Part shown: in pieces, positions 13,407-42,354 of the stretch
Numbering within the stretch: the stretch's first letter is position 1
Layout of the letters: every line of letters begins with the position of its first letter
From: Escherichia coli
Lineage (GTDB): Bacteria; Pseudomonadota; Gammaproteobacteria; Enterobacterales; Enterobacteriaceae
Reading direction: 5' to 3' (one strand)
DNA length: 64,000 nucleotides
Assembly: GCF_001677475.2 (NCBI RefSeq)
Contig: NZ_CP015229.1
The notes under the pieces: model-generated
Told to the model about the DNA's origin: nothing
Databases searched by the model: none
Seen by the model: only the letters and a program-made list of their open reading frames with translations
Translations under genes and position numbers: made by a program

Positions 13407-13413
13407 ATCTCTG

Positions 13414-13448
13414 TGTCGCATCAGGCATTTATCGCCTGATGCGACACG
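13414..13448. terminator. long perfect hairpin between convergent ygfZ and yqfA
   Basis: GTGTCGCATCAGGC / GCCTGATGCGACAC, 14-bp perfect stem with a 7-nt loop; arms contain the REP-like GCCTGATGCG motif. Confidence 0.6.
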
Positions 13449-13482
13449 GGTGTGTCTTTTCAGGCCTACAAAGGCACACCCA

Positions 13483-16916: not shown

Positions 16917-17106
16917 TAAAGGCGCCGAAGCGCCTTTCAAATTGATGACAAAGTGCGTTTTTATGCCGGATGCGGCGTGAACGCCTTATCCAGCCTACAA
17001 GATCGTGCAAATTCAATACATTGCAGAGACCATGTAGGCCTGATAAACGAAGTGCATCAGGCAATGTTGAGTTTGTCATCAGCCTCAAAGGCGCCGAAGC
17101 GCCTTT
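16917..17106. repeat. REP pair (BIME/RIP-like): two inverted REP units with a linker, bracketed by duplicated hairpin AAAGGCGCCGAAGCGCCTTT
   Basis: REP unit TGCCGGATGCGGCGTGAACGCCTTATCCAGCCTAC (about 16964-16998) and inverted unit TGCCTGATGCACTTCGTTTATCAGGCCTAC (about 17033-17064); identical 20-bp hairpins at 16918-16937 and 17087-17106. Confidence 0.8.
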
Positions 17107-40057: not shown

Positions 40058-40918
<861 letters not shown>

Positions 40919-41050
40919 TCAATATTCCTTTTCAACTGACTCAAAATGGAGAAATACACTCCGCCGCCTTATGACGGGCAGTCTGACAAGGGTAAACAAT
41001 AAAGCATAATTTTGCCAAATAGATCACAGATTTCTCATCTGTATCACCTT

Positions 41051-41250
41051 GCTTTTGGCGAAAAATCCCCGCAGAGCGGGGCTCAGACAGATATCAATGT
41101 GCGCTTTGTCATGCCGGATGCGGCGTGAACGCCTTATCCGGCCTACAAAAACCTGCAAATTCAATATATTGCAGGATACGTGTAGGCCTGATAAGCGTAG
41201 CGCATCAGGCAACTTTTCTTTTGGCGAAAAAAAGACCCGCAGAGCGGGCC
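41051..41250. repeat. REP pair (BIME/RIP-like) bracketed by a ~30-bp direct repeat containing a small hairpin
   Basis: REP unit TGCCGGATGCGGCGTGAACGCCTTATCCGGCCTAC and inverted unit TGCCTGATGCGCTACGCTTATCAGGCCTAC; flanks TTTTGGCGAAAAA..CCCGCAGAGCGGG at 41054-41083 and 41220-41250. Confidence 0.8.
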
Positions 41251-41274
41251 TTGAGATAAGCAGAAAGGAATATC

Positions 41275-42354
41275 TTACAGAACGTCGATCGCGTTCAGTT
41301 CCTGGAATGCTTTTTCCAGACGAGCGATCATCGAAGTCTGACCGGCACGCAGCCATACACGCGGATCGTAGTATTTCTTGTTCGGCTGATCTTCGCCTTT
41401 CGGGTTACCCAGCTGACCCTGCAGATAAGCTTCGTTTGCTTTGTAGTAGTTCAGAACGCCTTCCCAGGTTGCCCATTGGGTATCGGTATCGATGTTCATT
41501 TTAACTACGCCGTAGCTTACGGAGTCTTTGATTTCCTGAGCAGTAGAACCGGAACCACCGTGGAATACGAAGTTCAGGCTGTTGTGCGGCAGGTTGTGTT
41601 TCTTAGAAACATATTCCTGAGAATCACGCAGGATGGTCGGAGTCAGAACCACGTTACCCGGCTTGTAAACACCGTGTACGTTACCGAAGGACGCTGCGAT
41701 GGTGAAACGCGGGCTGATTTTGCTCAGCTCGGTATACGCATAATCAACGTCTTCCGGCTGGGTGTACAGTGCAGAAGCGTCCATGTGGCTGTTGTCCACG
41801 CCGTCTTCTTCACCACCGGTGCAACCCAGTTCGATTTCCAGAGTCATGCCGATTTTGGACATGCGCTCCAGGTATTTAGAGCAGATTTCGATGTTCTCTT
41901 GCAGAGATTCTTCAGACAGGTCGATCATGTGAGAAGAGAACAGCGGCTTGCCGGTAGCTGCGAAGTGTTTTTCACCCGCGTCCAGCAGACCGTCGATCCA
42001 CGGCAGCAGTTTCTTCGCGCAGTGGTCGGTGTGCAGGATAACCGGAACACCATAATGTTCAGCCATCTGGTGAACGTGATGCGCACCAGAGATCGCGCCC
42101 AGGATAGCAGCACCCTGCGGAACATCAGATTTCACGCCTTTACCAGCGATAAAGGAAGCACCACCGTTGGAGAACTGAACGATAACCGGCGCTTTAACTT
42201 TAGCAGCGGTTTCCAGTACGGCGTTGATGGAGTCAGTACCGACGCAGTTTACTGCTGGCAGTGCGAAGTTGTTTTCTTTTGCTACCTGGAAAACTTTCTG
42301 TACGTCATCACCAGTGATTACGCCAGGTTTTACGAAATCAAAAATCTTAGACAT
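41275..42354 (-). CDS. fbaA: fructose-bisphosphate aldolase class II, 359 aa
   Basis: ORF 41275..42438; start at MSKIFDFVKPG (ATG 42354..42352) gives the K-12 length. Confidence 0.95.
   Translation of the reverse strand: MSKIFDFVKPGVITGDDVQKVFQVAKENNFALPAVNCVGTDSINAVLETAAKVKAPVIVQFSNGGASFIAGKGVKSDVPQGAAILGAISGAHHVHQMAEHYGVPVILHTDHCAKKLLPWIDGLLDAGEKHFAATGKPLFSSHMIDLSEESLQENIEICSKYLERMSKIGMTLEIELGCTGGEEDGVDNSHMDASALYTQPEDVDYAYTELSKISPRFTIAASFGNVHGVYKPGNVVLTPTILRDSQEYVSKKHNLPHNSLNFVFHGGSGSTAQEIKDSVSYGVVKMNIDTDTQWATWEGVLNYYKANEAYLQGQLGNPKGEDQPNKKYYDPRVWLRAGQTSMIARLEKAFQELNAIDVL

Follow-up and report, generated by a model that had tools for sequence, protein, structure and literature searches.

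A BIME-1 element within the fbaA terminator of Escherichia coli, bracketed by probable target duplications of the terminator hairpin

The spacer between fbaA and mscS in the stretch of Escherichia coli DNA analyzed here (64 kb, hereafter the window) contains a known BIME-1 (RIB/RIP) element located inside the intrinsic terminator of fbaA. The 32–34-nt repeats that flank the element are very probably two copies of this terminator, that is, a local target that has been duplicated and not cargo that travels with the element. Our best reading is that BIME-1 behaves as a YPAL-type element, which inserts at terminator hairpins and duplicates them, after which repeat-mediated exchange deletes or amplifies it.

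We regard the brackets as local target duplications because they are locus-specific, abut conserved element termini and occur as a single copy where the element is lacking, as seen in element-free genomes at three loci. This contradicts a preliminary description of the window, in which the element was suggested to copy together with flanking terminator-like sequence.

The fbaA–mscS element and its flanking repeats

The minus strand of the window carries argO, mscS, fbaA, and pgk (ORFs, with names from the RefSeq annotation of matching records). The element is extragenic, lying between the stop codon (41275–41277) of fbaA, which encodes class II fructose-bisphosphate aldolase (41275..42354, minus strand), and mscS (40058..40918, minus strand), which is downstream of it on that strand; it thus occupies the 3′ end of a transcription unit. 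RefSeq annotation of this spacer in K-12 comprises CDS features only, with no repeat feature. Two ORFs in the region, 41024–41356 (minus strand, 110 codons) and 41049–41504 (plus strand, 151 codons), were rejected as coding sequence: they cross the REPs, the duplicated terminators, and the end of fbaA, and are repeat-sequence artefacts unfit for gene annotation.

Read along the plus strand, the structure begins with the distal (mscS-side) copy of the duplicated fbaA terminator (41052..41083, minus strand), a T-tract and hairpin delimited by repeats, empty-site alignment, and terminator score. Its hairpin is CCCCGC-AGA-GCGGGG (stem 41067–41081), and alignment shows this copy to be missing from “empty” E. 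coli alleles. The BIME-1 left arm follows (41084..41112, plus strand), placed by an anchored listing of 76 elements, arm fit, and alignments; its sequence, CAGACAGATATCAATGTGCGCTTTGTCAT, is a degenerate form of the family consensus TCAGATTGCTGACAAAGTGCGCTTTGTTCAT. The REP pair of the preliminary description corresponds to a Y-type REP (palindromic unit), GCCGGATGCGGCGTGAACGCCTTATCCGGCCTAC (41113..41146, plus strand), and a Z1-type REP inverted relative to it, GCCTGATGCGCTACGCTTATCAGGCCTAC on the minus strand (41182..41210), both recognized by pattern match and inverted repeat. Between them lies an L linker (41147..41181, plus strand) with an IHF-consensus-like ATTCAATATATTG, assigned from linker pattern, Rfam score, and literature. 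Beyond the Z1 unit, anchored listing and arm fit identify a right-arm remnant, AACTTTT (41211..41217, plus strand); the canonical 25-nt right arm AATTTTGCGTTTGTCATCAGTCTCA is missing at this copy, and the duplicated target begins early. The proximal (fbaA-side) terminator copy (41218..41251, minus strand; stem-loop 41232–41252) again consists of T-tract and hairpin, was delimited in the same way as the distal one, and is identical to the single copy of the empty alleles.

This anatomy is that of BIME-1, described as one Y and one inverted Z1 unit joined by a conserved L linker, frequently with an IHF site (Ton-Hoang 2012, PMC3333891), and as about 140 bp long including flanking motifs, with some isolates having and others lacking a given copy (Chiapello 2005, PMC1187871). 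The fbaA copy has one Y and one inverted Z1 unit as a single unit, a conserved long L linker with a predicted IHF consensus site, and an extragenic position at the 3′ end of a transcription unit with presence/absence polymorphism, and its core shows no difference from BIME-1, so it is an ordinary member. The REP-Y and REP-Z1 patterns each have just two matches in the 64-kb window, where none are expected by chance, and the linker core CTGCAAATTCAATATATTGCAG (41153–41174) has one other match there (17005–17026, two mismatches), again with none expected. The same linker is found in about 100 elements retrieved by pattern. Read from the sequence, ATTCAATATATTG fits the IHF consensus WATCAANNNNTTR with one mismatch; this predicted site agrees with the earlier remark that linkers of this class are reported to bind IHF, the literature counterpart being the IHF-binding L linker of BIME-1 (PMC3333891).

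In a scan of a 601-nt region, Rfam family RF02751 (ES036/CssrF) matched positions 41147–41189 (plus strand) with 47.3 bits against a gathering score of 37.6. The segment modelled is the L linker plus adjacent REP bases. The match means no more than that RF02751 was built on this linker sequence, and is no evidence of sRNA function; the model would be expected to match other BIME-1 copies with this linker and not a single sRNA gene.

The flanks contain two pairs of direct repeats, 41046–41065/41212–41231 (20 nt, 90% identity) and 41061–41083/41229–41251 (23 nt, 87%). With boundaries refined from the empty-site alignment, the duplicated unit is CTTTTGGCGAAAAATCCCCGCAGAGCGGGGCT at 41052–41083 and CTTTTGGCGAAAAAAAGACCCGCAGAGCGGGCCT at 41218–41251, 32–34 nt long and 166 nt apart, which places the direct repeats of ∼30 bp noted earlier around the REP pair within 1–2 nt of their first description. 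Each had been said to read as a hairpin followed by a T-stretch on the minus strand, and both copies indeed score as intrinsic-terminator-like on that strand (41252–41232, nine pairs plus T run; 41081–41067, six pairs plus T run). They have diverged with pairing kept (CCCCGC/GCGGGG vs GGCCCGC/GCGGGTC). Chance similarity of the flanks was ruled out by null distributions of non-cognate flank pairs, with a left-versus-right alignment score of 44 against a 99th percentile of 33, and a score of 29 against a 99.9th percentile of 22.4 in a terminus-anchored test. The predicted outcome at this locus is that, on the minus strand, fbaA and mscS are separated by two terminator-like hairpins in tandem, between which lies an element bearing a putative IHF site.

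The fbaA copy is atypical in that its right arm is nearly gone and its duplication extends beyond the hairpin, and a secondary event must be invoked. The duplication reaches about 20 nt past the hairpin and includes the T-tract, which is why both copies keep a T run; in canonical insertions, such runs occur only on the outer side of each copy. The Escherichia whittamii ortholog (L083) keeps right-arm AATTTTGC, fused directly to TTTTGGCGAAAAAAA of the duplicated target. Because the native flank TTGCTTTTGGC resembles the right arm TTGCGTTTGTC, that arm was likely lost at fbaA through a microhomology junction (TTGCnTTTGnC) or through a later deletion or conversion.

A further palindrome of the window, at 13410–13450 after a gene end, consists of two facing REP-like halves in near-perfect symmetry (GTGTCGCATCAGGC ... 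GCCTGATGCGACAC) and is followed by a GGCCTACAAAGG motif at about 13463. It is not a BIME-1, and it lacks an IHF-type linker.

Flanking duplications in the sister element and across the family

The gcvP–ygfF spacer is the only other site of these REP and linker motifs in the 64 kb (16965–17062). Linker, REP patterns, and alignment define a sister element there (16918..17106, plus strand), composed of a hairpin, AAAGGCGCCGAAGCGCCTTT (16918–16937), the left arm, REP-Y (16965–16998), the linker, REP-Z1 (17034–17062), the right arm (17063–17086), and the same hairpin AAAGGCGCCGAAGCGCCTTT again (17087–17106). The bracket is a perfect 20-nt repeat with copies 169 nt apart, and its hairpin is unrelated to that of the fbaA bracket. 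The near identity of the two linkers and their assignment to one element family, both proposed in the preliminary description, are upheld: the linkers match at 20 of 22 bases on alignment, and the two elements can be aligned over a stretch that begins about 30 nt upstream of REP-Y and runs through REP-Z1.

The gcvP–ygfF structure of the window occurs in only eight genomes (e.g. strain 24A16CRGN010, with the same architecture), and a single AAAGGCGCCGAAGCGCCTTT copy is found in K-12-like, O157, and clone D i2 genomes. The K-12-like spacer (L006:280-500) has no BIME-1 and instead carries another repeat, CCCTCGCCCTTTCAGGGAGAGGGCCGGGGTGAGGG..., which we take to resemble boxC; in the same spacer, TTTGTCATCTGACT adjoins the single gcvP hairpin and resembles a remnant of the BIME-1 right arm, hinting that an older element was replaced. 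In clone D i2 (L007) and O157:H7 F7349 (L008), which lack ygfF, bglA and gcvP are direct convergent neighbours, with a spacer that holds a lone REP after bglA and the single gcvP hairpin. None of 5,426 genomes exceeds about 95% identity to the window's ygfF and spacer (about 94% in most K-12-like records), which thus represent a divergent allele.

A linker-pattern scan of one genome per species returned 107 stretches with 108 Y-L-Z1 elements, 24 of them in tandem arrays. This family sample derives from a single exact linker pattern, is dominated by Pseudocitrobacter and by Escherichia other than E. coli, and does not amount to a census of K-12. The 76 single elements, which reduce to 56 independent sites after merging orthologs, share conserved arms outside the REPs, left TCAGATTGCTGACAAAGTGCGCTTTGTTCAT and right AATTTTGCGTTTGTCATCAGTCTCA, that form imperfect inverted repeats (BIME-1 arm sequence, TCAGATTGCTGACAAA). 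The whole element thus measures about 152–154 bp, in agreement with the roughly 140 bp quoted for BIME-1 (PMC1187871).

We aligned the 50 nt outside the left terminus locally to the 50 nt outside the right terminus, using fixed offsets anchored on the termini, and compared the scores with those of 5,640 non-cognate flank pairs. Scores above the 99.9th percentile of these pairs were obtained for 24 elements at 21 sites (<0.1 expected), one of which, L111, is a tandem-array artefact, leaving 20 true sites. At these sites, the inner edge of each copy lies no more than about 2 nt from the adjacent element terminus, and the duplicated segment is 12–30 nt long (median 20). It coincides exactly with a GC-rich stem-loop in 18 of 20 cases, with 0–1 nt unpaired on the 5′ side and 0–5 nt on the 3′ side. 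Roughly half of the sites have an A run before the left copy, a T run after the right copy, or both; the targets are thus intrinsic terminators, many of them bidirectional, of which only the hairpin is duplicated.

The preliminary description had made the bracketed architecture depend on flanking repeats being present at other copies of the element, which holds for part of the family. The architecture recurs at 20–21 of the 56 independent sites in Escherichia and Pseudocitrobacter, and at 16 of the 28 sites with both arms intact, that is, at only about 36–57% of sites and in ∼40% of the related copies examined. At the others, the duplication is absent, the hairpin one-sided, the arms truncated, or the flanks too diverged to score. 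None of the 28 arms-intact sites is hairpin-free, the remaining 12 comprising three with diverged hairpins on both sides and nine with a one-sided hairpin. Where the two copies of a pair have diverged, base pairing is often retained (e.g. L084 and L057), and the flank sequences also reveal short non-hairpin duplications (ATGCTAT in L020/L032, AAAGCCC in L028).

These brackets make it highly improbable that the terminator-like flanks form part of the mobile unit and are copied to new sites together with the REP pair. Such a view could draw on the bracketing of both window elements and on the palindromic nature of the hairpins, which could pass for extensions of the terminal inverted repeats. 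The brackets nevertheless differ between the two window elements and among the 20 independent sites, whose duplicated segments show no meaningful similarity to one another; the loops have the same orientation in both copies, making the repeats direct and not inverted; and element-free alleles keep one local hairpin copy.

Perfect BIME-1 sequence of the Escherichia type was also retrieved from tiny contigs of non-enterobacterial assemblies, namely a 262-bp contig of Desulfosporosinus sp. OT (L019), a 261-bp contig of Methylobacterium frigidaeris (L067), a 720-bp contig of Alkalicoccobacillus porphyridii (L089), and a contig of a Collinsella MAG (L113), the last of which clusters as an ortholog of an Escherichia albertii site (L010). 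Contamination of these assemblies with E. coli or other Escherichia DNA is the most likely source of all four.

Occupied alleles, empty alleles, and arrays

The full mscS–fbaA site was found in 3,719 of 5,426 complete E. coli genomes. Among the remainder (about 1,700 genomes), all 12 sampled rows were 166–167 nt shorter (e.g. ST131, CD306, and SCU-204). The genomes searched thus divide into roughly 69% occupied and about 31% empty at this locus, and the two groups differ in 3′-UTR and terminator architecture. In the three empty alleles that were aligned, the single terminator is identical to the fbaA-side copy and is joined to the mscS-side flank.

Two further loci show the same relationship. 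The yccJ–agp site is occupied in 88 genomes, with sampled others about 182 nt shorter, and the pitA–uspB site in 1,940 genomes, with sampled others 174 nt shorter; the one empty allele aligned at each has one hairpin. Syntenic filled and empty sites, as known for YPAL-type elements, are therefore available at mscS–fbaA, yccJ–agp, and pitA–uspB. The mscS–fbaA empty allele could be either ancestral or the product of deletion between the repeats; a search for MscS homologues as outgroups returned only E. coli proteins at 99% identity, and the E. whittamii site L087 had no alignable E. coli counterpart. The yccJ–agp empty allele has a hairpin with the left copy's loop variant and the right copy's 3′ stem; this looks like a chimera of the kind made by a crossover and favours deletion between repeats. 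A 1997 paper by Bachellier reportedly speaks of “excisions of a whole BIME-1”.

Tandem arrays, in which hairpin and element alternate, support unequal exchange between the duplicates. At the gcvP–ygfF site of Escherichia sp. E1V33 (L058), two units with a 173-nt period are arranged as hairpin-element-hairpin-element-hairpin, and L107/L102 contain at least five units of 162 nt, with the same hairpin between successive units. Unequal exchange of this kind can also delete the element precisely, consistent with the known presence or absence of BIME-1 among isolates. Escherichia sp. MOD1-EC7003 carries Y-L-Z1 tandem arrays of another type (L104, L106, L112, and L111), with periods of 107, 115/230, and 229 nt; their units are shorter than element plus hairpin, and a second mode of amplification without the flanking hairpin therefore exists.

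Since unequal exchange is clearly at work, in arrays of two to at least five units, and tandem terminators do occur in bacteria, one might ascribe the brackets to local tandem duplication or unequal crossing-over unrelated to insertion, or to an element landing between pre-existing tandem terminators. We consider this very unlikely: about 20 independent loci have repeat boundaries that lie no more than about 2 nt from the element termini, the empty alleles examined have one hairpin and not two, and doubling of [element + hairpin] yields B-T-B-T and cannot make T-B-T from B-T.

A somewhat less remote, though still unlikely, explanation is Campbell-type re-integration, in which a circle of element plus one hairpin, released by recombination between the repeats, recombines homologously with the hairpin already present in a chromosome, which may belong to another strain, so that the polymorphism would reflect excision and re-integration at the same locus and not transposition. 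It accounts for an allele size difference of exactly element plus one repeat, for the chimeric yccJ–agp empty allele, which fits repeat-mediated excision, for the existence of arrays, and for the presence or absence of BIME-1 among isolates (Chiapello 2005, PMC1187871). It cannot, however, make the first T-element-T at a new, unrelated hairpin, and about 20 different hairpins are duplicated; because it cannot found new sites, it can be a secondary process only.

On the reading we prefer, insertion at terminator hairpins, arrival of the element would itself have generated the duplication, which would be the equivalent of a target-site duplication with its extent set by the target hairpin and not by a fixed stagger. 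Opposite-strand breaks might fall at both feet of a hairpin or cruciform that has been extruded, or at varying points beside it, and fill-in after these breaks would copy the palindrome to both sides. Later unequal exchange or slippage between the copies could lead to precise loss, with one hairpin left, or to tandem amplification.

Comparison with known repeat families and implications

YPAL/RU-2 of Yersinia offers a close parallel to the insertion footprint. In the work of De Gregorio et al. (2006), as relayed by Delihas (2008, PMC2229807), YPAL elements are associated with duplications of 3–26 bp, with targets that span or adjoin dyad symmetry, and with filled and empty sites. YPAL and BIME-1 are both palindromic intergenic elements of about 150–170 bp with filled and empty sites, and their termini are near identical (TTCAGACTGCTGACAAA vs TTCAGATTGCTGACAAA; ...TTTGTCAATAACCTCA vs ...TTTGTCATCAGTCTCA). 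Compared with the YPAL sequence of PMC2759123, the left BIME-1 arm matches at 16 of 17 nt and the right arm at 12 of 19. The gcvP copy and the family consensus carry the YPAL-type termini TCAGAyTGCTGACAAA ... TTTGTCA...CTCA, and the fbaA copy has a degenerate left arm (TCAGACAGATATCAA) and a right arm reduced to 7 nt. Target duplications are variable in length in both systems (3–26 bp reported for YPAL, 12–30 nt in the family studied here, and 32–34 nt at fbaA), and those of the fbaA copy and of the family lie at dyad symmetry or terminator-like sequence, as in YPAL. The interior, by contrast, is unrelated, YPAL having neither a Y/Z1 REP pair nor an IHF-type L linker.

Other systems fit less well. 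REPIN/RAYT elements (TnpA_REP, an IS200/IS605-like HUH Y1 transposase) also have an inverted REP doublet as the replicating unit, and E. coli TnpA_REP cleaves REPs in vitro (PMC3333891). Enzymes of the IS200/IS605 type are described as giving no flanking repeats (Ton-Hoang 2012, PMC3333891; Nunvar 2010, PMC2817692), whereas here 12–34-nt duplications abut arms that lie outside the REPs; insertion without target duplication, the mark of REPIN/RAYT, is thus not what we observe at the 20–21 duplicated sites. Classical MITEs (ERIC/IRU, Correia/NEMIS, and RUP) resemble the present element in being short and non-coding, with terminal inverted repeats, target duplications, and frequent location in 3′ untranslated regions (PMC2229807), but those elements are A+T-rich and their duplications short and fixed (typically TA), in contrast to the variable lengths that track a GC-rich hairpin here.

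Earlier work has classified BIME-1 in several ways. A 103-nt BIME-1 core was listed by Delihas as “RU-3” (PMC2759123) and considered probably no longer mobile (Delihas 2008 review, PMC2229807), and REPs were described as lacking MITE signatures (Delihas 2011 review). Duplication of terminator hairpins by BIME-1 is not described in Ton-Hoang 2012, Nunvar 2010, Delihas 2007/2008/2011, or Chiapello 2005, and literature searches brought up no such account; an earlier description may exist, for instance in the primary papers of the 1990s (Boccard & Prentki 1993, Oppenheim 1993, Gilson 1991, and Bachellier 1994/1997).

Taken further, these parallels allow the tentative proposal, which we judge somewhat more doubtful than probable, that the BIME-1/RIP elements of E. 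coli are true transposable elements of the YPAL family, or were so until recently, for which structure-directed staggered breaks would duplicate the whole terminator hairpin. The RAYT/IS200-type model without duplication would be incompatible with this, and another enzyme or a host pathway would be implied. If true, YPAL-type insertion would explain both the location of these elements 3′ of operons and the survival of terminators on both sides of them.

For about 40 years the question of how REP and BIME sequences spread has stood open, and under the current RAYT model no duplication of the target is expected. A reproducible, hairpin-sized duplication that adjoins defined termini offers a concrete, testable footprint of BIME-1 insertion, one shared with YPAL of Yersinia. 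It also carries a warning for annotation, as tandem “terminators” around a REP pair are probably one terminator, duplicated. At the level of the family, this footprint would explain the position of BIME-1 at operon 3′ ends, its presence or absence among strains, and the growth and shrinkage of its arrays.
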